In this document: positions 30,341 through 56,430 of the stretch, one piece after another
How positions within the stretch are numbered: position 1 is the first letter of the stretch
How the letters are laid out: every line of letters begins with the position of its first letter
Origin: a virus
Taxonomy: Duplodnaviria; Caudoviricetes
DNA length: 64,000 bases
Virus record (IMG/VR): IMGVR_UViG_3300031419_000378
Span: 13,249 to 77,248 of that record
Strand: one strand, 5' to 3'
Notes under the pieces: model-generated
Databases searched by the model: none
What the model saw: the letters and a program-made list of their open reading frames with translations, nothing else
Told to the model about the DNA's origin: nothing
Translations under genes and position numbers: made by a program

Positions 30341-30387
30341 AAGGCGACGGCTCAGGCAATACAAATCCAATCTTCAAAGCAATCAAT

Positions 30388-30411
30388 GTCCGCTTTGTGC
30401 CAGAAGCGGGC
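30388..30411 (+). repeat. 24-bp palindromic cassette repeat, forward copy A1
   Basis: GTCCGCTTTGTGCCAGAAGCGGGC. Confidence 0.9.
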
Positions 30412-30459
30412 CTTGCTAAGATCAATTGAGTTAATTAACCAAACACAGATCAGTCCGTT

Positions 30460-31653
30460 TTATCTCATATTCGCAATATTTATTTCATCATATTCTTGGA
30501 GTTCAACCGTCACACGTATTATTGGAAATTTTCTAGGTCTATATTTACCAATTACAGTTGTCTTGACAGGAGGATAAAGCTGCAAAATATCACTCACACC
30601 ATTGAATAGAGGCCGAAATTTTTTTGATGAAACCATCCCTAATAATATTTTTTCCACTAAATAACTAAACGAAAGATGAGGATTTGTCTGCATGGTATAA
30701 AATAACAATTTAACAACAGATTGGCCGTTCAAGCCGAATGATTTCAATAGCGTAATTAGCTGAGGAGCATGAAGACACATTCTCGATGATATTATACGAT
30801 TTTGAGTTGTGACACTAGATGGGAAATAGGACGGCTTTCCGAGTTGCTTGCTGCGGGCAAGAACATGGTGCACTACCCTTTCCCATGCGGAATTGAAATA
30901 GCGGGCGTTATCAAAATACTCCCCAACCTGACTGCCAGCGACATTATTATTCTGATAAAAACCACTGAGCAACGATCCTAGAGTTTTGTCACATGGATCA
31001 TTCATTAAAGCTTTTCCAACCATCCATCGGCAAGGCCAGATCGGTGATGAGTTAGCATTTCTCGTCGAGGCAGCAACTCCATACCAAGCAAATCGACAGG
31101 GATCAGAATTTGGAGCCTTAGTTAAGTCAACATTACTCTCTTCAACTTTAGTTGTATTGGATGAATATGATATGTCAAATTTTGACCATTTACTATAAAG
31201 CTCAAATTCTTTATAGGTGCTATTTTTTTTCGAAGAATCATATTTCGTGACAGGAACATGGCACACTTGGCTTTCTTTTTCCGTTATTTTTGCCTGTAAA
31301 ATAAACGCTTTATTTCTTTCGCTTAATACACTTTGTGATTGCATGTCAATAATCTTTTCATCAAAGATAAACATTGCATCGCCAAGTTCAACTTTCTTAT
31401 CAAATGGTTTTCCACTGCATAATTTTGCGTAAGGTGCCTTGTCAATCCAGCACAACTGAGAGTTTACATCAATAAAAAGTCTGGGGTTTTTTTGTTTCTC
31501 ATGCTTGTAAATTATTTCTGATAGTTCATCCAGAAAACGTGGTGTAAACAATGCTCCAAGTTGTGTTAGCTCGCCGCCAGTTACATTCCGGCACATCTTA
31601 TTTATAAGATCATCAATCTCTTTCGCCATATTCTCACCACTCACTTTAAACAC
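30460..31653 (-). CDS. Putative PD-(D/E)XK nuclease-fold protein
   Basis: VELGDAMF...FILQAKI fits the E..D...QxK restriction-endonuclease motif; AT-rich. Confidence 0.55.
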   Translation of the reverse strand: MFKVSGENMAKEIDDLINKMCRNVTGGELTQLGALFTPRFLDELSEIIYKHEKQKNPRLFIDVNSQLCWIDKAPYAKLCSGKPFDKKVELGDAMFIFDEKIIDMQSQSVLSERNKAFILQAKITEKESQVCHVPVTKYDSSKKNSTYKEFELYSKWSKFDISYSSNTTKVEESNVDLTKAPNSDPCRFAWYGVAASTRNANSSPIWPCRWMVGKALMNDPCDKTLGSLLSGFYQNNNVAGSQVGEYFDNARYFNSAWERVVHHVLARSKQLGKPSYFPSSVTTQNRIISSRMCLHAPQLITLLKSFGLNGQSVVKLLFYTMQTNPHLSFSYLVEKILLGMVSSKKFRPLFNGVSDILQLYPPVKTTVIGKYRPRKFPIIRVTVELQEYDEINIANMR

Positions 31654-31746
31654 CCCTTAACATTGTAAATTTTAAATAAAAATCAGACCATCATCATATA
31701 ATAGTTTACAGACTTCTCTCTCTGCTACTACTGGAGGATAAGCTGA

Positions 31747-32109
31747 ATGCTTCTGGATAAGCTCAAATTACTCGAATGCAGCCTTCACGGTGATTGGCGC
31801 AACGATGGGGAGTGGCTTGAGCAGCTTCTCCACCCTGAATTTAAGGAGATTACCCGGTCAGGCGTGATGGTTGACCGTTCAGTAACGATCTCGTCACTAT
31901 TAAACGAGAAAAAGTCATCGCCTATTATAAGCAGCGATTTCTGGCTCACTGAAATGGGGAGTGGCTGCGCCATTCTTCACTACCGTACGTCTTGTGCTGA
32001 CGGAAGCCATCCTGCATTGCGCTCCTCATGCTGGTTGTATTCGGAGGAAGGCCAGTGGACTCTGTTTTTTCATCAGGCCACGCCTGCAGCATGTAGCCTA
32101 GGTTTGTGA
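31747..32109 (+). CDS. DUF4440/NTF2-like protein
   Basis: LLHPEF.EI..SG and RSSCW...W...FHQ.TP. Confidence 0.8.
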   Translation: MLLDKLKLLECSLHGDWRNDGEWLEQLLHPEFKEITRSGVMVDRSVTISSLLNEKKSSPIISSDFWLTEMGSGCAILHYRTSCADGSHPALRSSCWLYSEEGQWTLFFHQATPAACSLGL

Positions 32110-32183
32110 TCGAACACTATACTCGCTGGCAGGCTCATTAAACACTGCCAGTTGTCTGTTATTTGATGTAGTCATCAGTAAAT

Positions 32184-32207
32184 GTCCGCTTTTCGCTCAT
32201 AGCGGAC
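32184..32207 (-). repeat. 24-bp palindromic repeat, inverted copy B1
   Basis: GTCCGCTTTTCGCTCATAGCGGAC. Confidence 0.9.
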
Positions 32208-32226
32208 CTTTAATCTTACATGTACG

Positions 32227-32415
32227 TTATCGATTTCCACAGACATCAACTTTTTCACCTGTAAGTCTTTCAACCATCTCCAATGCGTCCGGATCGCCAT
32301 GCCAGGCCATGCAACTTAAACAGTCTCCGCCACAGTCAAAATTCAATGTGTCTGGTGTCTTACTCATTGGCTGATTACAGGTCTGGCAATTGCTTTCTTT
32401 CACTGGAAGTGGCAT
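32227..32415 (-). CDS. Small Cys-rich putative Zn-binding protein
   Basis: CxxC, DCGGDCLSCMA, GDPD. Confidence 0.55.
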   Translation of the reverse strand: MPLPVKESNCQTCNQPMSKTPDTLNFDCGGDCLSCMAWHGDPDALEMVERLTGEKVDVCGNR

Positions 32416-32462
32416 CCGTTTTTAGATTTTTATTTCTATGTTACCTAACATATCACCCTTAA

Positions 32463-32525
32463 ATCCGTTCCTCACTCATAGCGGACTCTAGCCTGCCGTC
32501 AGTCCGCTTTGTGCCAGAAGCGGAC
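32463..32525. repeat. 63-bp doublet: inverted repeat B2 + 15-nt linker + forward repeat A2
   Basis: ATCCGTTCCTCACTCATAGCGGAC-TCTAGCCTGCCGTCA-GTCCGCTTTGTGCCAGAAGCGGAC. Confidence 0.9.
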
Positions 32526-32657
32526 GTTAGTAACGTCGGAGCTGCATAAATTAGAGGGGAGAAGGTTAAACAAAGGGATGAGATCACTTTCACAGTAAAA
32601 AAAGTAAATTTATGTTATCCATGACTATCTCATGCTATAAAAATCACCCATGGATAA

Positions 32658-33908
32658 ATGCACTTCGATACAAGGAACTATTGGATGGACTTTTTCGAAA
32701 TTGACGAAGATACTGATTTAGACCTCCTTCATTTCAAATTTAAGGATCTGAATAACCAGTTAGGGTACGTCGGTGCTAAAGAGGTTGTTTCTTCTTGGGG
32801 AAATGACTTTTATGATCGCGATAAAAAAGCTAAAAAAGAATTTCAAACATCGTTTCACTCTACTTTTTGGGAGCTCTATCTTCACGCAGTACTGAAGGAA
32901 ATGAACTTCAAAGTTAGCGAAAAGCATAATCGACCAGACTTTATCGTCGAAGCCCCCAAAGAGATGTACATTGAAGCAGTAGTGTCAGAGATTAAAAAAG
33001 ATGGTACTCCTGAAAAACTACGAACTCTAGAGGATGTTGAGGCCAACTTACGGCCGATTAAAACCAAGCGTGAGTTTACAGATATCATCGATGAGGCAAT
33101 ATCACGTCATTCTAACTCCCTAAAATCAAAGCTAGGAAAATACACTGGATATACACGCAAAGATAATACGCCTATTAAAGGATACGTCGATTGTAATTGG
33201 GTTTCGCCTAAGGCTCCATATATAATAGCCTTATCCTCCCATGACCAAATTGCCTATGGCAGAGAATTTATTTATTCCATGTTTGCTTTACTGTATGGGC
33301 ACTATTACGACCCAGAAAATAAAGTATACACCAAAAAAAATAAAATTAAGAAACCCGGCACTGATTCGGATTTAAATCTTGGAATTTTTTTTAACCCAGA
33401 ATTCAAAGAAGTTTCAGCGGTTTTATTTTGCAACACACTGACATTAGGTAAACTCTCTTCGCTACATAAATCAGAAAAAATAAATTTCGATACAGTTCTA
33501 AACATTAGATATTTGCAAGATGAACCGCATTTTCGTGTGCATGAAGTAACACCAGAAAATCCCGAGCAATTACTTGATGGTCTGTACATATTCCATAACC
33601 CACTTGCCAAAAACAAAATAGATTTCGATCTATTTAATAAGTTAGCACAATTCTCTGTGGACGAATATGGGCCACATCAAATTGGCAATTATCCTCTACT
33701 AGTGTCTAGGTTTCACACCAATATGTTGCCTAGTTCAATAATCCCAAGTATAAAGACTGATGCTTTTTCAAGCTACAACCCAGAGTACTGTATGCGAGAA
33801 CTCAAAAAAGAGAGCTGTCTTTTAAAGCCCGCTAAAAGCGAAAGGATCAGGCAAAAGAAAAAAAGGACAAATAAAATCGCGAAGACTTCCCGCAGAAAAA
33901 ATAGATGA
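32658..33908 (+). CDS. Putative PD-(D/E)XK-fold protein
   Basis: FHSTFWELYL...RPDFIV...YIEAV; AT-rich single-gene cassette. Confidence 0.55.
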   Translation: MHFDTRNYWMDFFEIDEDTDLDLLHFKFKDLNNQLGYVGAKEVVSSWGNDFYDRDKKAKKEFQTSFHSTFWELYLHAVLKEMNFKVSEKHNRPDFIVEAPKEMYIEAVVSEIKKDGTPEKLRTLEDVEANLRPIKTKREFTDIIDEAISRHSNSLKSKLGKYTGYTRKDNTPIKGYVDCNWVSPKAPYIIALSSHDQIAYGREFIYSMFALLYGHYYDPENKVYTKKNKIKKPGTDSDLNLGIFFNPEFKEVSAVLFCNTLTLGKLSSLHKSEKINFDTVLNIRYLQDEPHFRVHEVTPENPEQLLDGLYIFHNPLAKNKIDFDLFNKLAQFSVDEYGPHQIGNYPLLVSRFHTNMLPSSIIPSIKTDAFSSYNPEYCMRELKKESCLLKPAKSERIRQKKKRTNKIAKTSRRKNR

Positions 33909-33981
33909 GAAACTTTAATTTCATCAACTATTTATCAGCGCTAAATCTTCCCTCACAGCAAACTTGATGACTACTAACCCT

Positions 33982-34005
33982 GTCTGCAGCGTGCCAGAAG
34001 CGGAC
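33982..34005 (+). repeat. Palindromic repeat, degenerate forward copy A3
   Basis: GTCTGCAGCGTGCCAGAAGCGGAC. Confidence 0.8.
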
Positions 34006-34173
34006 AGGGTTGGACTGTATATAGTTCATGCTACCTCTACTTGCGTTACCAGATAATTTAGTCACTACAAAGCTAAAAATCTTGGTAAATGATTTAGTCA
34101 GTCATTCAATCATCGCACGTTTATTGCATCACTTAGGTTGTATTAGAATAGCCATATTATTTAGGAGACGATC

Positions 34174-35064
34174 ATGTTTAAGTATGCCGTAAACTCGCTA
34201 GCAGATTATGTTTCAACAGTTACAGAAATAGTAAATGAAGTCGATGACATATGGTTTAGAGGACATGCTTGCGCTTCATATAGATTAGCACCTTCGGTAT
34301 TACGTGATACCGTTCCTTTAACTGATGCCAGAGGTAATAGGGTCGAAAATGGTCAGGTGATACGTTCAGAGGGCGGTCATGTAACAGGTCTTAGTCCCGA
34401 AAATATGTTTTATGAATTTAAGTCTCGAGCGGTTCCTTTTTTGAATCGAGAGCCCTCAAATAATTTTGAGTGGATGTTCTTGATGCAGCACTATGGCGTA
34501 CCAACGAGGCTGTTAGACTGGACGACAAACGCCTTAGTTGCGTTATTCTTTGCTATCGAATCAAATCCTACCTCTGACGAAGAGAGGCATTACAACGAAT
34601 GGCCCTCGCAAAATTTTATGGAAAGCGATGAGTTTTGCTCGGAAGGAGCTGCTGTTTTTGCCATAAGCCCATCAGAATTGAATTATCTAACAGTCTCAAA
34701 CAGATCAAAAATTTATATTTGTGAAGAGGCTGATAAATGGAGTCATTACTTCGATCCAATGAATAAAAAAGATGGTTGTAATTTTCTTCCAATTGCAGTC
34801 CAATCAAGTCATATTGATACGAGAATAAGATCACAATCGGGCCACTTTACATTACATGGTTCAAATACATGGGAATTAGACTATTATGATGAGCTTCGTA
34901 AAATTATACATAAAATATTTATACCATATGAAGTGGTACCCCAAATGCTTAAAGATTTGCAAGCTCTAGGTATAACGGAGTCATTTATATATCCGGGACT
35001 AGAATCGTTGTCGCGAGATATCAAAAGAAGCGAAGTTTTTAAATTCAACGGCAAAAAGCTTTAG
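34174..35064 (+). CDS. FRG-domain protein
   Basis: WFRGH, MQHYGVPTRLLDWTTNALVALFFA, RIRSQSGHF. Confidence 0.9.
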   Translation: MFKYAVNSLADYVSTVTEIVNEVDDIWFRGHACASYRLAPSVLRDTVPLTDARGNRVENGQVIRSEGGHVTGLSPENMFYEFKSRAVPFLNREPSNNFEWMFLMQHYGVPTRLLDWTTNALVALFFAIESNPTSDEERHYNEWPSQNFMESDEFCSEGAAVFAISPSELNYLTVSNRSKIYICEEADKWSHYFDPMNKKDGCNFLPIAVQSSHIDTRIRSQSGHFTLHGSNTWELDYYDELRKIIHKIFIPYEVVPQMLKDLQALGITESFIYPGLESLSRDIKRSEVFKFNGKKL

Positions 35065-35105
35065 CATTTCATTACAACCTGCTAGCCGCTGAACATGGAG
35101 TCAAT

Positions 35106-35168
35106 GGCGGCTTATCGCTCATAGCGGACATTGGGCTGGATAGCGTCCGCATTGTGCCAGAAGCGGAC
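35106..35168. repeat. 63-bp doublet B3-15nt-A4
   Basis: GGCGGCTTATCGCTCATAGCGGAC-ATTGGGCTGGATAGC-GTCCGCATTGTGCCAGAAGCGGAC. Confidence 0.9.
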
Positions 35169-35460
35169 GTAGCTAACAATATTTTGTAAGGAGCAACTGG
35201 GGCAGTTCAGCGCGCCACAGTAATTCGCTGCGCAGGAAGTTAAGCTGCTTATATAAGTTTTTCCAAAAATTTAATTTTTAGCATCTGGCGTAAAGAAAAC
35301 CTACGTATTGCGAAAGAAAATTCTAATTAGGGGCTTAGGTTAGGTAATTGTGAGATAGGAGGTGGGATTTAGGAATTTGGCTATATAAGGAATCGAATAG
35401 AATGGCTCTAAATATTAAGAGCCATCACAATACAAAGCACGCTACATTAAAAAAATAAAA

Positions 35461-36213
35461 TTAGCCATCATCTTGAATGGAACAAATACAATTTGCTAGC
35501 CGTGTCGGCTTTAAAAGTCGATAAGCATATTTTCCTTTTAAACTCTGAATATGCCCTAACAATGTGTATCCACTACGTCTTGATAAGTTACTTTTTAAAT
35601 CGGATTCAACTTTAGTATAGTCTTTCACAAAAGCATTGTTTGGTGACTCAATCATTGCTTCTATAATATCAGCCAACCCTTTAAAACCCATTTTTAAATT
35701 ATCTAGAGCGACCACATTTAACTCTTCAATGGCTAGCGTCAAGTCAGGACTTATATCAGTTACACTATCACCTTGAAAAGCGACAACCCATTGCCCATGA
35801 GCAATCCTATTCCTGAGTGCACTTGGCGTTTTCACATAGTCAATGATTAATTTTTTAATATAAGTATCAGCGGAAGATAATTGAACGGAATTGAATGTTG
35901 GTGCTGATAAAACTTTAGCCTTAGCTACTTTTAAGCATCTACGCCATTGAGCTTCCATTCCTTTTAATTTTTTTATACTCTCTATTTCGCTTAATTCAAA
36001 ACCATAAGGAGTATGAATTAATTTTGAGAATAACGCTTCAGTCCAAGCAGAATAAATTAGCGAAAGAGTTTTCGTATGGATTCTTGCCTCAGTATCTCGA
36101 TCATTTTTTAAGGCAAGATTCAAACTAATCTTAGCGATGCGCCAAGCTCGATCTAATTCTTTTATGTTCTTTGTTTGAGATTGGAACACGATAAGTTGTT
36201 GGGCTCTATCCAT
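35461..36213 (-). CDS. HEPN-like protein (RX4H motif), putative RNase
   Basis: LRNRIAHG motif in an all-helical 250-aa protein; N-terminal YSAWTEA. Confidence 0.6.
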   Translation of the reverse strand: MDRAQQLIVFQSQTKNIKELDRAWRIAKISLNLALKNDRDTEARIHTKTLSLIYSAWTEALFSKLIHTPYGFELSEIESIKKLKGMEAQWRRCLKVAKAKVLSAPTFNSVQLSSADTYIKKLIIDYVKTPSALRNRIAHGQWVVAFQGDSVTDISPDLTLAIEELNVVALDNLKMGFKGLADIIEAMIESPNNAFVKDYTKVESDLKSNLSRRSGYTLLGHIQSLKGKYAYRLLKPTRLANCICSIQDDG

Positions 36214-36275
36214 AACGCGCCTTAGGATGAAGTTTGCGACTCACAAGTATGGAAAAAACACTTAGAAAATATTTT

Positions 36276-36364
36276 TTCCATACCTGGAATTGAACCAGGA
36301 ACCTCCTTCAAACCTCAATAGATGCAGATTTAAAGGCGCTCTACCAAATTTGAGCTATATGGGC
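36276..36364 (-). ncRNA. tRNA-like RNA (89 nt) with extended, non-canonical anticodon arm
   Basis: GCCCATA-TA-GCTC-AAATTTGGTA-GAGC-G-CCTTT-[22 nt]-GAAGG-AGGTT-CCTGG-TTCAATT-CCAGG-TATGGAA; perfect D and T arms, 5/7 acceptor pairs, no CCA. Confidence 0.7.
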
Positions 36365-36393
36365 ATAGTTATAGTTACAAGCATGTTAAGTTT

Positions 36394-36399
36394 TGTCAA
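36394..36399 (-). promoter_or_regulatory. Consensus -35 hexamer TTGACA upstream of the tRNA-like element
   Basis: 29 nt upstream of the predicted 5' end; -10 box imperfect. Confidence 0.4.
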
Positions 36400-36575
36400 G
36401 TTTTTTTTCGGCAAACCAATGTTCAGCTATATAATGGCTGTAATCGACTAAAGCATGAGTAGGAAATTCAGACTGAAAACTATCATTAATGCTATAAAAT
36501 AAAGCTAGCTGCGCTGACCTGTTTCCTGTTGTTTAATATGCCACGTTTTAAGTAAAACTTCATCATACTGCGAAT

Positions 36576-36650
36576 GTCTTCTCTTCGCTCATAGCGGACA
36601 TTGTGGCGGACATTGAGCCGGATAGCGTCCGCTTTGTGCCAGAAGCAGAA
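36576..36650. repeat. Doublet B4-A5 with a 12-nt partial duplication and 15-nt linker
   Basis: GTCTTCTCTTCGCTCATAGCGGAC-ATTGTGGCGGAC-ATTGAGCCGGATAGC-GTCCGCTTTGTGCCAGAAGCAGAA. Confidence 0.85.
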
Positions 36651-36787
36651 GTAACGCAGGATCAGTACAAGTTAATCAACGAAATCTTGGCCATAGCTTT
36701 TGCGTTATTAATCTAAATAATGGACATTCATGCCGGATGATTTGAAAATCGTAAGTCTATGATTTACTTATTCGGACATTAAAGTAG

Positions 36788-37219
36788 ATGAGCCAAAAAT
36801 TAGAATTCATGTTGTTAGCGCTTGAAAAATCACGTCTAGCGCTCCCAGGCTGTAGACCAAATCCACCCGTTGGGTGCGTGATCGTCCATAACGGGCAGGT
36901 GGTTTCCGATGGCTTCACTCAACATCCAGGTCATCATCACGCAGAGATAGACGCCATTTCAAAACTAGAGGTTCCAATTGGTGAATGTGAAATCTTTGTC
37001 ACACTGGAACCATGCTCCTTTCAAGGAAGAACCCCATCCTGTGCATTGACTCTTGCTGAACTAAAACCACACCATGTCTATGTAGCCATTGAAGACCCGC
37101 ATTCCAGAAACAATGGAGAAGGGCTGAGAATTTTAAAAAATGCAGGGGTCAGCTTTACCTTAGGAATTGGAAAAAGAGAAGTGGAGAAGTTCTTATCGCC
37201 TTATTTGGTGAAGTCCTGA
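36788..37219 (+). CDS. Stand-alone Zn-dependent deaminase (RibD N-terminal-like)
   Basis: PNPPVG, HAE, TLEPCS...TPSC; no reductase domain. Confidence 0.85.
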   Translation: MSQKLEFMLLALEKSRLALPGCRPNPPVGCVIVHNGQVVSDGFTQHPGHHHAEIDAISKLEVPIGECEIFVTLEPCSFQGRTPSCALTLAELKPHHVYVAIEDPHSRNNGEGLRILKNAGVSFTLGIGKREVEKFLSPYLVKS

Positions 37220-37260
37220 CAGTTTAAATACAACAAAACAGTGCCGGCCATGAAAATTAT

Positions 37261-37323
37261 GTCCGCTCTTCACTCAAAGCGGACAAAGGGCTGGTTAGCG
37301 TCCGCTTAGTGCCAACAGCGGAC
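37261..37323. repeat. 63-bp doublet B5-15nt-A6
   Basis: GTCCGCTCTTCACTCAAAGCGGAC-AAAGGGCTGGTTAGC-GTCCGCTTAGTGCCAACAGCGGAC. Confidence 0.9.
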
Positions 37324-37452
37324 CTAGATAATCGCCAGTGGTAATTGCTGATAATCCTCATCAGTCCAGATAGTAGCCTTAAGGTTGTGCCATCATGTTC
37401 ATGAACGTTAAAGTTGCTCAAAATGATTATAGGTAAGATTAGGAAGTAACTT

Positions 37453-37920
37453 ATGGCACGTCGAAGTGAATTAAAAGGTATAGCGATTGCTATTAATGGG
37501 AGTTTTGTAAGCAGAAACAACGACTTAAATGGATACTGGTCAATAGGCAAGATTAAATCATTCGCTCTTGATAACGGCCTTACCTCAGTGACTTTTCCTC
37601 TCACCCTTCCTATGACCAACTCCGCATCAAATCTGCAAAACCATACGGTTAACCGCTACGCCAAAATGCTCAAGAGCCTATTAAATAAACAAAAATTACC
37701 TAGCCTCTGGGTAAGCAACGCGGTCATTACAATCGACTTTGATGCTAAAGCGGGACATGCAAAATTGTATGAAGACACCACCTCAGGCGACCTTTTCCAA
37801 TGCACCTGTAAGATAACTGATGATATTGACCGAGATTACTCATCCATAATGTATGGGCGTTGCTTGCCGCATTCTGTAGTTCGAGAGTTAAAATCGACTC
37901 GAAATTCACCATCATTTTAA
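37453..37920 (+). CDS. Hypothetical protein (single-gene cassette)
   Basis: 155 aa; stop codon abuts repeat B6. Confidence 0.7.
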   Translation: MARRSELKGIAIAINGSFVSRNNDLNGYWSIGKIKSFALDNGLTSVTFPLTLPMTNSASNLQNHTVNRYAKMLKSLLNKQKLPSLWVSNAVITIDFDAKAGHAKLYEDTTSGDLFQCTCKITDDIDRDYSSIMYGRCLPHSVVRELKSTRNSPSF

Positions 37921-37921
37921 C

Positions 37922-37945
37922 TTCCGCTCCTCGCTCATAGCGGAC
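37922..37945 (-). repeat. Palindromic repeat, inverted copy B6
   Basis: TTCCGCTCCTCGCTCATAGCGGAC. Confidence 0.9.
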
Positions 37946-38033
37946 ATCGGTCTGCACATCTGAGCACTGCCGCCTGTAGCGTCTTATACTCATTTCAGGA
38001 GTTGAAAAACGCTGGTCAAAATGGAGCATTGCA

Positions 38034-38411
38034 ATGGCCTTTCAGAACCCCGCCCAGAACTACACTGAAACGCGCCTGAACTTGGGCGATCTGGTCTATC
38101 TTTCACCTTACTCAACCTATCTGATGCGTAGCGAAAGCGACTGTCCCGGTGCCGGGATTGTCAAAGGATCTGTGCTGGCCATTGATCGCGCGCTGACACC
38201 AGCGCACGGTCAGCTTATCGTTGCTGAGTTTGACGGGGAGCTTTCGCTGAGGCGGCTGCTTCTCAATCCTGTTCCCGCCTTGCAGGCGCTGGACGCGGAC
38301 GAGACTATAACGCTGCTTGATGTAAGCCAGGCGCTTCCTGTGTGGGGTGTGGTCGCTTATGCCCTTACCGATATAGCGGGAGTGGGATTCAACGGACCAG
38401 CAGGAGAATAA
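38034..38411 (+). CDS. umuD: UmuD'-like (HumD-type) protein lacking the N-terminal arm and catalytic dyad
   Basis: Starts MAFQNPAQNY (UmuD GFPSPA.DY); no GDSM serine; SLRRL in place of T.KRL; precedes umuC. Confidence 0.75.
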   Translation: MAFQNPAQNYTETRLNLGDLVYLSPYSTYLMRSESDCPGAGIVKGSVLAIDRALTPAHGQLIVAEFDGELSLRRLLLNPVPALQALDADETITLLDVSQALPVWGVVAYALTDIAGVGFNGPAGE

Positions 38412-38413
38412 TT

Positions 38414-38643
38414 ATGTTTGCGCTGGCCGACGCCAATAATTTTTACGCCTCCTGCGAAACTGTATTCAGACCCGACCTTCGTGGCAAACCCATTGTCGTT
38501 GTGTCCAACAACGACGGCTGCGTTATCGCACGCTCAGCGGAGGCAAAGCGCATGGGCATCAAAATGGCCGCTCCGCTGTTTAAAAATGAGCGTTACTTTC
38601 GTGAGAACGGCGTTCATGTATTCAGCTCCAACTACGAGCTGTA
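38414..38643 (+). pseudogene. umuC: umuC 5' fragment, interrupted
   Basis: MFALADANNFYASCE...FSSNYEL, then premature TAG created by the insertion. Confidence 0.9.
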
Positions 38644-38714
38644 GTAAGTTAAGTGGAATGCAACATTGATTGGGTAAACTTTGAGCAGCAATGCTGTTGT
38701 CAGAGGTAAACACA

Positions 38715-39698
38715 ATGATGATTCCACCAAACGAGGATGTGCTGGTACTGGCGGAGCGCTGGCTGAAACTGCTGTCCGACCTGGGCCGGGCTCAGACCAC
38801 ACTCTCCGCCTACCGCAGTGCCCTCAGCCATTATTTTGCATTCTGCAGCCAGAACAGCATTGAACCTGAAAAGGCCCGGTTTGAAGACCTGGCCGCCTAC
38901 ATCAGCCCTCAGTTACCCGGCATGCCTTTTCCCGCAGCCAGCGCCACGCTCCAGCTGCGCCTTTCTGTGATCCGTCTCTGGTATGACTTTCTGCTTTATC
39001 AGGATATATGCAGTCTCAATCCGCTACCCCGTGCGGGTTTACCCGGCGTCATTTATACCGGGCGGGGGCTGGTCCCGCGTATCACCCGCTTACCCGTAAT
39101 ACCTGATGATGAGCAATGGCTGAAATTTCTTAAACATGTTTCAACTGCCTCCCTGCGTGACCGGCTGATGCTCGCGCTTGCCTATTTTGGTGCACTCCGC
39201 CGTGCAGAGGTGACAGCCCTGGCGCTTGAGGATATCGACCCTGCGCATCGCCTGATCCGTATCCGCCCGGAAACAACGAAAAGCAGGCGGGAAAGAATTA
39301 TTTGTTATGGTCCGGACGTGACGCCGGTACTGGCAAATCATTTTCGGCAGCTGAAGCAGGCTGGCTGGACACAGGGTGCGCTGTTCCGTTCATTTTCTGA
39401 TCGTAATTATGGCACACCCCTTTCTGTGTGGAACTGGAGTAAAACCGTACGCAGATGGGCTCTGGATACCGGGCTTCCACAGATTACAACACATACCTTC
39501 CGCCATCTTCGTCTGACCCATCTGGCGCGGGCCGGCTGGAAACTGCATGAGCTGGCGACTTATGCAGGACACAGGGATCTGCGCACCACACAAATTTATA
39601 TCCATCTGTCAGGTTACGATCTGGCTGGCCGGATAGCCGCAGCCGTGGCTGAAACCGACAGGAAAGTCGCCGGACTTATTTTTCAGGAGCCTTACTGA
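38715..39698 (+). CDS. Tyrosine recombinase (XerD-like, small partner)
   Basis: LRRAE, HTFRH, GHRDLRTTQIY catalytic residues. Confidence 0.9.
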   Translation: MMIPPNEDVLVLAERWLKLLSDLGRAQTTLSAYRSALSHYFAFCSQNSIEPEKARFEDLAAYISPQLPGMPFPAASATLQLRLSVIRLWYDFLLYQDICSLNPLPRAGLPGVIYTGRGLVPRITRLPVIPDDEQWLKFLKHVSTASLRDRLMLALAYFGALRRAEVTALALEDIDPAHRLIRIRPETTKSRRERIICYGPDVTPVLANHFRQLKQAGWTQGALFRSFSDRNYGTPLSVWNWSKTVRRWALDTGLPQITTHTFRHLRLTHLARAGWKLHELATYAGHRDLRTTQIYIHLSGYDLAGRIAAAVAETDRKVAGLIFQEPY

Positions 39699-41821
39699 TG
39701 AATGAAAAAACGGCCAGAGTCACTTATGTGCCTTTTAAACGCACAGATTATCAGCTGAGAGATGCGTTAAGTCCTGAGGAAAGAGACGCAATAAGTACAG
39801 GCTACCGGCGGTCAGCTGCGCTCGACCAGCCAGGTTCTCTGCCGTTTTTGCTGTTGCCTCTGCAGGACATTGCCTCACGCAGCAGTATCAGTGCCAGACT
39901 TGTCAGAATTACCATACTTACAGTTCTTGCAGAAACACACCGGGCGGGTCAGCCCTGCTGGCTGTGGACGCAGGAAAGGTGGTTAACGCTCTGTCAGCAA
40001 CACAGTTCCGGCAGGCCTTTGCTTGCTGCTTTTGCCTTTCATCTCGGCCCGTTTCCCTCTCCGTTAAGCCTGCCAGTGCATGGTGCACCTTCGCTGTACG
40101 CCAGTGCCATCTATGGCCGGATTTTTGTCAGCCATGAACTTAACCGGCTGACAGACGTTCTGATCTCACTGGGATATGTCGGGCAGAATCAGAAACACAA
40201 TCTGTCGGGTATGCTGGGTGTTCTGATGCTGATGAATAATGATCCGCAACTTGAAAATTTTACGACAGAACTGCTGTGGCGGGGGCAGAACTGTCACGAC
40301 CGGGGGATCGCAAGAGTTACAGGAAAAATATCCTATGCACTTGCTGCTATGGGGATTATAAAAAGCCCCCTGAGAATGCGTAATTATAAAGAGTGGCATG
40401 AAAAGCCAACAGAAGGTATCGCGCCTGACTGGGCCCGATGGTGCCGGAAGTGGCGGGAAACGTCGGTACTCCGCCCCCGCTCCAGAGAAACTCAGTACAG
40501 TTTCATTCTCCGCTGCGGCCTGTGGCTTGCCCGGGAAAAGCCGGAAATATGCGAACCGTCTGACTGGACAATGGAAACCTGCGCCAGCTTTATTGCAATG
40601 GTTGGCCGACTGAAAGTGGACGAGCTGTCACTGGACACAAATAAAGGGGGCAGGCGTTCAAACCGCTCAGGAAAGCCCCTGATGCCGCATTCCCGCAGCC
40701 GGTTTGTTTATGCAGTTCGCCGTTTTATGCTTGATTATGAAAGCTGGGGCTGGGGGAAATTAAAATTCAGTCCGGCCCGTCATTTGTCCTCGCCTGACAC
40801 ACCGCTGTTTCGTCAGGGCGTGAATCCCCGCGTCATTGATGATCCGGTCTGGCTGAAACTGGTCTGGGCAAGCCTGAATCTGCGTAAAGAAGATCTGCTG
40901 AGCGAAATTCATTATCCCCTGTCTATGCTTCAGGCTATGGCGGTTATCTGGACACATGCAGGGCTGCGACAGAACGAGCTGATGCGTCTGACAATGAACT
41001 GTATTACTCCACAGGCGGATGACATTCTGCAGGAAAACGGTGGTGCTATCCCGGCGGGCACTTTGTGCTATCTCAGCGTGCCGGCCGGCAAAACCTCTAA
41101 AGCTTTTGTTAAGCCGGTCTCGGCTGTAGTGAAAAAATATGTAGATATCTGGCTCAGTGAGCGTCCTCAGGAGCAGGCAGCACTTACGGATGAACGCACC
41201 GGCGAAAAAGTTCGTTTCCTGTTTCAGAATCGGGGTAAACCGGTGGGCAGGGACATAATAAATCTCACTGTTATTCCGGTTCTCTGCGCCAGAGCAGGAA
41301 TGCCTGCGGAAGATTCACGCGGTCCCATTACAAGCCACCGAGGCCGTGCTTCTGCCGTTACAGCACTGGCCAGTGTTACCGGGGGCATGTCTTTACATGA
41401 GCTGATGCAGTGGTCAGGTCACTCATCCGCACAGTCGACAATGCATTATATCCGCATCCGTCCGACTCAGCTGGCAGCATCGTTCGTAAAAGCAGACAGG
41501 GTCGCTCATATGATCAGCGTGCTGATTGACCACGATCCGGAAGCCGCGAGTCTGACCGGCCCCTCAACGTACTATGATCTGGGTGACTCATACTGCACGA
41601 ACCCCTTCTGGAGCAGCTGTCAGCACCGGATGGCCTGCATCGGTTGCGATTTTAACCTGCTCAAACAGAGCGCGCGCGGACTGATACTGGAAAGCAAAGC
41701 CTCTGTCAGACGTTACCTTGAGGAAGTTCCGCTCACACCCGATGAGAGAGCCATCGTGGAACAGGACGCAGAGAAAATTGAACAGGCTCTTAAAAGGTTG
41801 TCCCTCAAACCCGAAGGGTAA
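39698..41821 (+). CDS. Large tyrosine recombinase with long N-terminus and C-terminal Cys cluster
   Basis: GLRQNE, SHRGR, GHSS...MHY; CTNP...C.HRMAC..C; coupled to the previous gene. Confidence 0.85.
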   Translation: MNEKTARVTYVPFKRTDYQLRDALSPEERDAISTGYRRSAALDQPGSLPFLLLPLQDIASRSSISARLVRITILTVLAETHRAGQPCWLWTQERWLTLCQQHSSGRPLLAAFAFHLGPFPSPLSLPVHGAPSLYASAIYGRIFVSHELNRLTDVLISLGYVGQNQKHNLSGMLGVLMLMNNDPQLENFTTELLWRGQNCHDRGIARVTGKISYALAAMGIIKSPLRMRNYKEWHEKPTEGIAPDWARWCRKWRETSVLRPRSRETQYSFILRCGLWLAREKPEICEPSDWTMETCASFIAMVGRLKVDELSLDTNKGGRRSNRSGKPLMPHSRSRFVYAVRRFMLDYESWGWGKLKFSPARHLSSPDTPLFRQGVNPRVIDDPVWLKLVWASLNLRKEDLLSEIHYPLSMLQAMAVIWTHAGLRQNELMRLTMNCITPQADDILQENGGAIPAGTLCYLSVPAGKTSKAFVKPVSAVVKKYVDIWLSERPQEQAALTDERTGEKVRFLFQNRGKPVGRDIINLTVIPVLCARAGMPAEDSRGPITSHRGRASAVTALASVTGGMSLHELMQWSGHSSAQSTMHYIRIRPTQLAASFVKADRVAHMISVLIDHDPEAASLTGPSTYYDLGDSYCTNPFWSSCQHRMACIGCDFNLLKQSARGLILESKASVRRYLEEVPLTPDERAIVEQDAEKIEQALKRLSLKPEG

Positions 41822-41825
41822 AACG

Positions 41826-41849
41826 GGCCGCTATGTGCCAGAAGCGGAC
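41826..41849 (+). repeat. Palindromic repeat, forward copy A7, 4 nt after the recombinase stop
   Basis: GGCCGCTATGTGCCAGAAGCGGAC. Confidence 0.9.
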
Positions 41850-41978
41850 GTTAATGTATTACCTGTTCAGAAGCAGATTAGTCATTTTAAGTCATCAACA
41901 GAGTGCCAAGATGATTAAATTAATGTTTGACGCTGACTATATTTCTATTATTCTGGAAATATAGTTATTGGAGCCAGC

Positions 41979-54927: not shown

Positions 54928-55146
54928 CACCAACTCCTCTTCATCGGGGATTGGTATGCATTCCACGCTCTTCGAAAGAAATATAGCCAGCAGTTTATCT
55001 GCATGTCCTGAGTATTCGTTAGCGAACGTGGAGCACCTACTGGCTCGAAAGAAAAGCGGCGATCATCGCATGATTCTCGCTCAATATTCGTAACCAGTAA
55101 GCGCATACCCTGAATCACTTCAAAGTGTAATTCTCAGGGTGCGAAT

Positions 55147-55170
55147 GACTATATTTCGCTCAGAGCAGCC
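55147..55170 (-). repeat. Degenerate inverted palindromic repeat B7 near the element's right end
   Basis: AAT-GACTATATTTCGCTCAGAGCAGCC; shares the TTTCGCTCA.AGC.G.C core with B1. Confidence 0.55.
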
Positions 55171-55213
55171 ATCAAATCCGAAATAGTCCTGTAGATTTTC
55201 CATTCCACATAAA

Positions 55214-56246
55214 CGGCGACATGTCAGCACGCATGATGGCCATTCTGGGCGAGATGGCTGCGGGTCAGGAAGTCTACTCCATTGATGAGTCATTTCTGGA
55301 CGTTACCGGGATTGGCAACATTATCCCGCTCGAGACATTCGGGCAACAGATGCGCGAGCGCATTCGAAAGGAAACCGGGCTAATAATCGGCGTGGGATTC
55401 GCGCCTACTAAAGCGCTGGCCAAACTTGCTAACCACGCGGCCAAAAAGTGGACACAGACGAACGGTGTTGTGGACCTGTCTGACAGAAGCCGCCAGCGAA
55501 AGCTCCTGTATCTGACAGATGTCAGCGATATATGGGGAATTGGACAGCGTATCAGTAAACGGCTAAACGAGCTGGGAATAACAACGGCTTTGCAGCTTGC
55601 AGACAGCAACATCAGCATGATAAGGAAAAATTTTGACGTTATCGTTGAGCGGATTACGCGCGAGCTGAACGGCGAGTCCTGCATAGCTCTTGAAGATGCG
55701 CCGCCGCCCAAACAGCACATACTGAACTCGCGATCATTTGGCGAGAGAGTAACAAAACTGGAAGACATGCAGCAGGCTATCGTGCTGTATGCCACGCGTG
55801 CGGCGGAAAAGCTCAGGGAGCAGAATTCGCGCTGCCGCCATATTAGCGTGTCAGTTGCTACCGGCAGGCATGGCGATGAGCCGCGATACTCTAATACTGC
55901 ATCATGCATCTGCGACTATCCGACCAATGATACGCGGGACATTATTGAATTAGCGCTTCGCGGGCTTAGCACTATCTGGCGTGATGGCTTTCGGTACGCC
56001 AAAGCAGGGGTGATGCTAGGTGACTTTTACCAGTCAGGCACGACGCAGTTTGACATGTTCAGTGAGCAGCAGCCGCATGCAAACTCAGATGCACTGATGG
56101 CAGCCCTAGACGGTATCAATCGCTCAGGAAAAGGCAAGGTATGGTTTGCAGGGCAGGGAAATCGTGACAGTTTATGGCAGATGAAGCGAGAAATGCTGTC
56201 GCCACGCTACACAACAAGGATAAAAGATATTCCAAAAATAAAATAA
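55214..56246 (+). pseudogene. umuC: umuC 3' fragment
   Basis: GDMSAR, YSIDESFLD, SRSFG, W.MKREMLSPRYTT. Confidence 0.9.
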
Positions 56247-56291
56247 CCTTTAACTGATAAAGCGAAGGTGGATCGGACATGACTGTGTAAG

Positions 56292-56315
56292 GTCCGCTAG
56301 GTGCCAGAAGCGGAC
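56292..56315 (+). repeat. Palindromic repeat, forward copy A8
   Basis: GTCCGCTAGGTGCCAGAAGCGGAC. Confidence 0.9.
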
Positions 56316-56430
56316 ATTGCTAACATAGCGATATGCCCATTCCCCCGTGCATGCAGAACAAAGAGGTTACGATTCACGGGCAATTGGATATATAGTATAA
56401 AAAAATTAGTAAACTGAGGAAGCTATATGA

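Follow-up and report, generated by a model that had tools for sequence, protein, structure and literature searches.

In the 64,000-nucleotide (nt) stretch of phage DNA analyzed here (the window), which is part of the 77-kb viral record IMGVR_UViG_3300031419_000378, a gene for a 250-amino-acid (aa) HEPN-like protein is preceded, on the same strand, by an RNA that folds like a tRNA. We found this pair to be a conserved module, spread over at least 13 bacterial phyla and carried by phages as well, in which the tRNA-like RNA is no separate gene and forms the mRNA's 5' leader. The leader has two conserved and mutually exclusive structures, the tRNA-like fold itself and a long hairpin that takes the 3' acceptor strand away from it. 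The module is self-contained, is found as cargo of phages, cassette arrays and defense islands, and is probably an RNA-controlled toxin or anti-phage module; toxicity, RNA binding, neutralization and a role in defense are what we infer for it.

Conservation of the RNA-gene pair

The protein belongs to a rare but widely distributed family of 247 representative clusters, with 236 matches in one-genome-per-species contigs and 17 in viral contigs. Among the phyla with members are Pseudomonadota, Cyanobacteria, Desulfobacterota, Nitrospirota, Myxococcota, Acidobacteriota, Chloroflexota, Bacteroidota, Bacillota, Verrucomicrobiota, Fibrobacterota, Patescibacteria and Campylobacterota. The first-pass annotation of the window had proposed looking upstream of homologous genes for a tRNA-like element with covarying stems, and this is the arrangement that the family has. 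Such an element was already found by Rfam and ARAGORN in the first four distant loci, 38 to 47 nt upstream and on the same strand, and a strict T-loop word was present within 320 nt upstream of the gene in 95 of 102 loci, with only about 0.001 per locus expected by chance. With a covariance model made from 30 leaders, the full-length leader was recovered upstream, on the gene strand, in 92 of ca. 94 informative loci, including proteins down to 25-30% identity, and its stems covary. The loci missed by the model are contigs cut at the gene, besides two real exceptions. There is one tRNA-like unit per locus, and the order promoter, leader, gene is conserved. Even the most widely shared neighboring protein occurs in 4 of 84 loci at most, which leaves the RNA as the sole conserved partner; the module consists of the RNA plus one protein.

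The leader is also specific to the gene. Among five whole genomes scanned with the model, the four whose locus has the full leader gave 75-97 bits at the gene locus, while the best match in the fifth, the genome with one of the exceptions (L075), reached 40 bits. The next matches elsewhere in these genomes scored at most 44 bits and were ordinary tRNAs. No leader was detected at E <=1e-8 in 150 other genomes of the class.

The two exceptions differ from each other. In a Desulfonema metagenome-assembled genome (L008:2400-3400), the HEPN gene has its own AGGAGG and TTG start and no upstream leader, and a complete leader with its promoter lies just downstream on the opposite strand, convergent on the gene, possibly an inversion or an antisense layout. 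The other (L075:2411-2500) is a divergent Pantoea member (30% identity) with a tRNA-like RNA only 11 nt ahead of the ATG. The acceptor stem of this RNA is complete, its "anticodon" loop has 8 nt, it ends in CACC, and there is no alternative hairpin. It may represent a subtype without the switch.

A tRNA body with a capped anticodon arm

Inspection of the window sequence confirmed the cloverleaf reported upstream of the gene, at 36364-36275 on the minus strand, with all arms as described. RNAfold also gives a cloverleaf for this domain (36275..36364), which is further delimited by covariation and by the Rfam tRNA model RF00005, with a score of 34.7 bits against a gathering threshold of 29 (E 4.4e-5); at the anticodon region of the model the leader has 26 nt where 11 are expected. 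The 5' acceptor strand GCCCATA (36364-36358) is followed by a D arm, GCTC/GAGC with GG in its loop (36355-36338), by the elongated "anticodon" arm (36336-36305), by a variable loop of 5 nt and by a T arm, CCTGG-TTCAATT-CCAGG (36299-36283), all on the minus strand. Only 5 of the 7 acceptor pairs form, as had been noted, leaving a helix of 5 bp (36362-36358 with 36282-36278; GCCCATA versus TATGG) with positions 1-2 and 71-72 unpaired, and AAAA stands in the place of the CCA. The 7-bp acceptor and CCA end of a functional tRNA are therefore lacking, and the 3' side of the leader runs with AAAG/AAAA into the hairpin. The distance of 62 nt between the element and the ATG at 36213, and its co-orientation with the gene of the 250-aa RNRIAH protein, were likewise correct. 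The expected pseudo-tRNA call was obtained from ARAGORN only when introns were allowed, as "tRNA-Stop(tta) i(27,4)"; under default settings there was no call.

The tRNA body is conserved across the family. U8, A14, G18, G19 and the T-loop word GTTC.A..C are invariant in the alignment of the 30 sequences, and the columns of all the elbow nucleotides of a functional tRNA (U8, A14, G18, G19, T54-C56, A58 and C61) are invariant there as well. The T stem is 100% paired in this alignment, and both the T and the acceptor stems covary, the acceptor pairs being 100% paired in the 30 sequences and 95.9% in 88 leaders, with abundant compensatory changes. The frayed end is a family trait too, position pairs 1-72 and 2-71 being unpaired in 29 and 23 of the 30 sequences, respectively.

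The family also departs from a tRNA at the opposite end of the molecule. In the window the "anticodon" arm has, as first described, an 11-bp stem with a 10-nt loop instead of 5 bp and 7 nt (CCTTTAAATCT / 10-nt loop / AGGTTTGAAGG; sequence and RNAfold, the latter adding 2 pairs within the loop). This long arm is a peculiarity of the lineage of the window copy, whereas the rule in the family is a short capped stem, mostly of 4-7 pairs, with a loop of 3-4 nt in 67 of 86 hairpin loops. The 5 bp plus 7-nt anticodon loop of a functional tRNA was found in a single leader out of 88 and U33 in none, that is, a capped stem replaces the anticodon loop in 87 of the 88 leaders. The systematic loss of this loop fits a decoy that could not be cut at that site.

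Promoter, transcript and strand exchange

A sigma-70-like promoter (36371..36399, minus strand) lies directly ahead of the leader, with TTGACA at 36399-36394, a 17-nt spacer and AACTAT at 36376-36371, so that tRNA-like position 1 comes 7 nt after the end of the -10 hexamer. The generic promoter scan of the window did not list it, because AACTAT fits the -10 consensus at only 3 of 6 positions. Of the 88 leaders, 61 match the promoter at 8/12 or better, a score also attained by 18% of shuffled upstream sequences, and in 45 of these 61 the -10 element ends exactly 7 nt before position 1. By this geometry, the primary transcript should begin at G36364, i.e., tRNA position 1, with nothing for RNase P to trim. 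The gene was found in RNA libraries of relatives, as assembled contigs only. One metatranscriptome contig covers the promoter through the end of the gene, others end at 36186, 36238 and 36277, and in the RNA libraries of one study the depth across the tRNA-like part was low. Such contigs are uninformative on starts, ends, strand and level, and hence no claim about processing is built on them.

Downstream of the T arm, the leader can fold into an alternative 17-bp hairpin (36247..36283, minus strand), recovered from the RNAalifold consensus and supported by covariation. Its first strand takes in the last base of the T stem, the 3' acceptor strand and the A-run (AAAG), and then pairs with a complementary strand downstream. 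Compensatory changes were found in all 17 pairs, with 95.9% of cells paired, and the 6-bp part that competes with the acceptor helix is paired in 96.2% of cells in the 88 leaders (this 6-bp extension was left out of the structure of the covariance model). In the window, 6/6 and 11/11 of the hairpin pairs are intact and both alternatives are preserved; acceptor helix and hairpin are both intact in 77 of 88 leaders. Since the 3' acceptor strand serves two partners, the two helices are mutually exclusive, and the leader has the design of a three-strand exchange switch. When folding was computed with either helix enforced, the hairpin state was lower in energy than the tRNA state by a median of 14.5 kcal/mol. 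A hairpin that is so much more stable means that the tRNA fold must be kinetic, stabilized by a protein or confined to a shortened RNA. The first-pass annotation, whose listed features hold, had included neither the promoter nor the hairpin at 36283-36247, nor the ca. 200 nt at 35180-35382 described below.

The end of the hairpin is close to the start codon, at a median of 14 nt in the family. By computation, the tRNA state has the more accessible ribosome-binding region in 52 leaders and the less accessible one in 7 (0.54 versus 0.37). An extension of the hairpin into the T arm, so that it covers a GGA(A/G) Shine-Dalgarno sequence, is possible in about half of the leaders, with 68% paired versus 24-59% in slid controls. 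In the window copy, the hairpin is followed by a spacer of 33 nt (36214..36246, minus strand) with the Shine-Dalgarno AAGG at 36223-36220, and with this length the hairpin is unable to cover it. Burial of the ribosome site by the hairpin was accordingly rejected for the window, where the Shine-Dalgarno lies 20 nt past the hairpin, and is only partially supported in the family. A role of the hairpin as a canonical intrinsic terminator was rejected as well, as there is no U-tract after it and the terminator scan was empty there. Separately, we observed that GCGCCUU at 36339-36333 (spanning the end of the D stem, position 26 and the first part of the anticodon stem) is fully complementary to AAGGCGC at 36224-36218, which contains the Shine-Dalgarno, and this pairing is used in the predicted minimum-energy fold of the hairpin state. 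It was spotted post hoc, and the relatives with which it can be compared are near-identical ones only.

The HEPN-like protein

The 250-aa protein (36213-35461, minus strand, from the list of open reading frames [ORFs]), which carries a single HEPN domain by our assignment, had been recognized by its RNRIAH motif (codons at 35814-35797, minus strand). No family was assigned to it by Pfam (E up to 10), NCBIfam or PADLOC, and it matches phrog_12663, of unknown function. In 79 relatives, N16, R134 and N135 are invariant and T47, E59, W90, A138, H139, G140, Q141 and S190 nearly so, giving the motif RN..AHGQ. The HEPN Rx4-6H signature is thus borne out by the family, with R134/N135 invariant and with at least 90% conservation of A138, H139, G140 and Q141 among the relatives. 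When Pfam was run on these 79 proteins, weak matches to HEPN_Swt1 and AbiU2 were among the 25 most-matched of 59 families.

The AlphaFold2 model of the protein (pLDDT 93.9) had no Foldseek match in the PDB at E <=0.001, and a profile search of PDB sequences returned only noise. In a wide VIA structure search, HEPN domains made up most of the top 14 matches, led by HEPN toxins at Z 8.3-7.0: 5yep_B (Z 8.3, root mean square deviation 3.6, 132 aligned residues), 1jog_A (Z 8.1) and 8xdj_A (Z 8.0), followed by the HEPN domain of AbiA (Z 7.6), that of sacsin (Z 7.2) and 7ae2_A (Z 7.2). A second VIA search gave 8yuf_B at Z 8.1. For helical proteins a VIA Z below ca. 13 is not decisive, so values around 8 are modest, and from the model the HEPN fold is likely, not proven. 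A homodimer is predicted with an ipSAE of 0.87, against 0.04 for the best of 3 controls; the runs agree in at least 80% of the contacts (pLDDT ca. 87), for this tool, 20 of 30 solved homodimers attain the mark, as does 1 of 23 proteins whose solved structure is a single chain. The pass may be partly owed to likeness with solved HEPN dimers. The predicted interface holds residues 137-144, N16 and residues 44-60, placing the motif at the interface as in HEPN RNases. Together, signature and models suggest that the protein is a dimeric HEPN ribonuclease.

Comparison with known systems

A HEPN toxin coupled to a cis-encoded structured RNA is a known logic, although both the protein family and the RNA are different here. 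AbiF-AbiFr (PbAbiF, PDB 8VZ6; Zilberzwige-Tal et al. 2025, as cited in PMC12737573) consists of a dimeric single-HEPN toxin and a cis-encoded upstream RNA antitoxin, and in AbiFCd-RCd22 of Clostridioides difficile the HEPN toxin is also neutralized by a cis-encoded upstream RNA (bioRxiv 10.1101/2025.04.15.648962). Our module resembles them in the putative single-HEPN dimer, in the structured noncoding RNA directly upstream under one promoter, in having no protein antitoxin and in being carried by prophages and mobile elements. In the AbiF systems the RNA works as an antitoxin in cis as well as in trans. Unlike AbiF, the 250-aa protein has no Pfam match to Abi_2 (PF07751) at E up to 10, and this family was not among the 25 most-matched of the 59 in the 79 relatives. 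No AbiF chain came up in the PDB profile or structure searches, and the abiF RNA motif (RF03085) was absent from the matches of 35000-36800 to the whole of Rfam (cmscan, E up to 10). The leader is instead a tRNA look-alike, for which Rfam gives tRNA only, and it has in addition the conserved, mutually exclusive hairpin.

In type III toxin-antitoxin systems (ToxIN, CptIN, TenpIN), an RNA gene precedes the gene of an endoribonuclease toxin in one unit, and they act by abortive infection. Our module shares with them an RNA that stands directly before the gene in one transcription unit. It differs in that the leader has no tandem RNA repeats and no canonical terminator separates RNA and gene, and in the likely fold of the protein, HEPN and not ToxN-like. 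The Rx4-6H motif is held in common with PrrC, RloC and the HEPN-MNT toxins, and the latter (7ae2/7ae6/7ae8, 5yep, 8xdj) are the best structural matches of the protein; however, the module lacks both an ATPase or sensor domain and an MNT partner. PrrC and RloC cleave anticodon loops, and the 7ae2-type toxin trims tRNA 3' ends. The anticodon loop and the 3' end are the two places where the mimic departs from a tRNA.

The tRNA-like domains of bacterial YrlA (a Y-RNA-like RNA) and tmRNA also keep the acceptor/T/D elbow with the anticodon arm replaced. Their partners are Rsr/Ro60 and SmpB, whereas in our module the tRNA mimicry belongs to an mRNA leader that contains a switch, and Rfam gave no Y RNA or tmRNA match at the leader. 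We found no published description of a tRNA-like RNA paired with a HEPN gene, in a search that left most subscription journals outside.

Cassette and phage context

Phage structural genes occupy the window up to ca. 29.5 kb and are followed by a repeat array, in which nine co-oriented palindromic repeat copies with a GTGCCAGAAGCGGAC core, together with inverted partners, are located at 30385-37947, 41805-41860 and 55127-56326. The repeats bound single unrelated genes, mostly of defense type. Those that flank the HEPN module are at 35086..35179 (left, plus strand; GTCCGC/GCGGAC palindromes, attC-like) and 36556..36661 (right, plus strand), delimited by repeat analysis and folding. When folded, the boundary repeat gives a long imperfect hairpin (z -2.9). 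Integron membership was rejected, since no integron integrase (IntI) was found in the 77-kb record, possibly incomplete, in which the best match to TIGR02249 scored 38 bits versus a cut-off of 265. The array is thus an integron-like cassette array without an integron integrase in this record.

As first reported, there is no other gene in the cassette, the remaining ORFs of at least 40 aa being short antisense ones. The HEPN module is the only minus-strand cassette gene in the array, an orientation that it can afford, being equipped with a promoter of its own. The homology to contigs of relatives ends at ca. 35383 and at 36595-36599, with the same repeat family coming next on the left. These breaks at the cassette edges and the repeats indicate that the module moves as a cassette. 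Between the left boundary repeat and the start of the relatives' cassettes there are ca. 200 nt of noncoding sequence (35180-35382) that are absent from the relatives and may be a remnant of another cassette.

The neighboring cassettes code for a PD-T7-5 homologue (32658-33908, E 1.2e-61) and a PDC-S15/FRG-domain protein (34174-35064, E 2e-53). On the other side, a RibD-like deaminase domain stands alone at 36788-37219. Farther on, at 38034-41821, a UmuD-like gene and a UmuC-like N terminus directly precede two tyrosine recombinases (335 and 707 aa), of which the larger has a weak GmtZ-like match. This region looks like a multi-recombinase element inserted in umuC.

Mode of action

The first-pass annotation had read the RNA as a tRNA-mimic antitoxin, decoy or sensor paired with a HEPN toxin. 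The conserved pair, the covarying stems, the HEPN signature and the lack of a protein partner speak for this proposal, which had not taken the RNA for the mRNA leader that it is. By analogy with the architecture of AbiF-AbiFr, we tentatively favor a type III-like toxin/RNA-antidote module, with a probability that we would put somewhat short of even. The precedents of AbiF-AbiFr and AbiFCd-RCd22 and the neighboring PD-T7-5 and PDC-S15 defense genes were counted in its favor. Transcription would begin at position 1 of the tRNA-shaped leader, which keeps the elbow nucleotides of a tRNA but has a capped stem where the anticodon loop should be and a frayed end that lacks CCA. The HEPN dimer would recognize the tRNA body, and the tRNA-shaped conformer, in cis or freed from the mRNA, would bind it; being a look-alike of the substrate that cannot be cleaved (no anticodon loop, no CCA end), the mimic would hold the dimer inactive. 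Once transcribed, the downstream strand would take the place of the 5' acceptor strand, and the full-length mRNA would be locked into the 17-bp hairpin near the ribosome-binding site, which would throttle translation and limit the amount of toxin obtained from each RNA. The nuclease might be freed if the RNA ceased to be supplied or were captured in the course of an infection.

Several points weigh against an antidote of this kind. In the full-length leader the tRNA fold is thermodynamically disfavored (median +14.5 kcal/mol), a stable trans-acting tRNA-like RNA would need processing or termination, and neither a U-tract nor a scanned terminator was found behind the leader hairpin. Besides, a simple antitoxin has no need for a conserved switch, and the match to the HEPN fold is moderate only (Z ca. 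8, with Foldseek empty and weak Pfam HEPN matches). A conserved hairpin that destroys the tRNA fold makes a cis-regulatory role at least as well supported as that of a trans antitoxin.

The main rival reading, to which we give an only slightly lower probability, is that the leader is a purely cis-acting strand-exchange switch and the RNA is never a free antitoxin. By default the hairpin would keep translation low, and a tRNA-binding factor (the HEPN dimer in an autoregulatory loop, or else a host tRNA enzyme or phage protein) would capture the transient tRNA-like conformer and alter translation or mRNA decay. Mutually exclusive pairings that are both conserved and covarying, and both intact in 77 of 88 leaders, speak for such a switch. 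With a transcript starting at position 1, the tRNA fold would form first during transcription, and the short median distance of 14 nt from the hairpin to the start codon, the more open ribosome-binding region in the tRNA state (52 leaders against 7) and the extension of the hairpin over the Shine-Dalgarno in about half of the leaders all agree with it. However, the Shine-Dalgarno of the window is uncovered, 20 nt past the hairpin, the gap in accessibility is modest (0.54 versus 0.37) and computed only, and the divergent Pantoea member has the tRNA-like RNA without the hairpin. Leaky translation of a HEPN toxin gene on its own would, moreover, still have to be countered by neutralization, and there is no other partner.

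A bolder version, which we consider unlikely, is that the leader represents a sensor of a new class, namely a strand-exchange riboswitch that mimics a tRNA and shows its tRNA face briefly during transcription. Whatever captures this face, the HEPN dimer or a phage tRNA-directed enzyme, would decide between the silent hairpin and a state open for translation or neutralization. More improbable is that the tRNA-like domain serves as a signal for processing or stability, not directly linked to the activity of the protein and recognized by host enzymes of tRNA maturation (RNase P, RNase E or Z, TruB/TrmA), which would cleave or shield the mRNA. The canonical T and D loops could be recognized by the tRNA machinery, and the contigs ending at 36238 and 36277, near the 3' end of the tRNA-like domain, are a weak hint, from contigs only; but the predicted start at position 1 leaves nothing for RNase P, and neither the restriction of the leader to one gene family nor the systematic closure of the anticodon loop would be explained. 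Finally, a decayed tRNA gene or integration-site remnant standing beside the gene by chance, as could be thought from the frequency of tRNA fragments on mobile elements and the missing default call of ARAGORN, is excluded for practical purposes by a position, strand and spacing that are constant in 92 loci from at least 13 phyla, by compensatory changes in every helix and by the conserved geometry of the promoter.

The control of HEPN toxins by cis-encoded RNA was shown, for AbiF, only in 2025, and these toxins are regarded as the ancestors of Cas13. If the toxin/antidote reading is true, the module described here would be a second, independent HEPN-plus-RNA lineage, with an RNA whose mimicry points to tRNA as the likely substrate and with a built-in conformational switch supported by covariation. 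In the case of the sensor, the output of toxin would be coupled to the state of the tRNA-handling machinery of the cell during infection. With one promoter, one RNA and one protein in ca. 1 kb, and a distribution over at least 13 phyla and phages, the module is compact and would make a tractable model of an RNA mimic gating a nuclease, of cotranscriptional folding setting the ratio of toxin to antidote, and of the cargo of phage cassette arrays.

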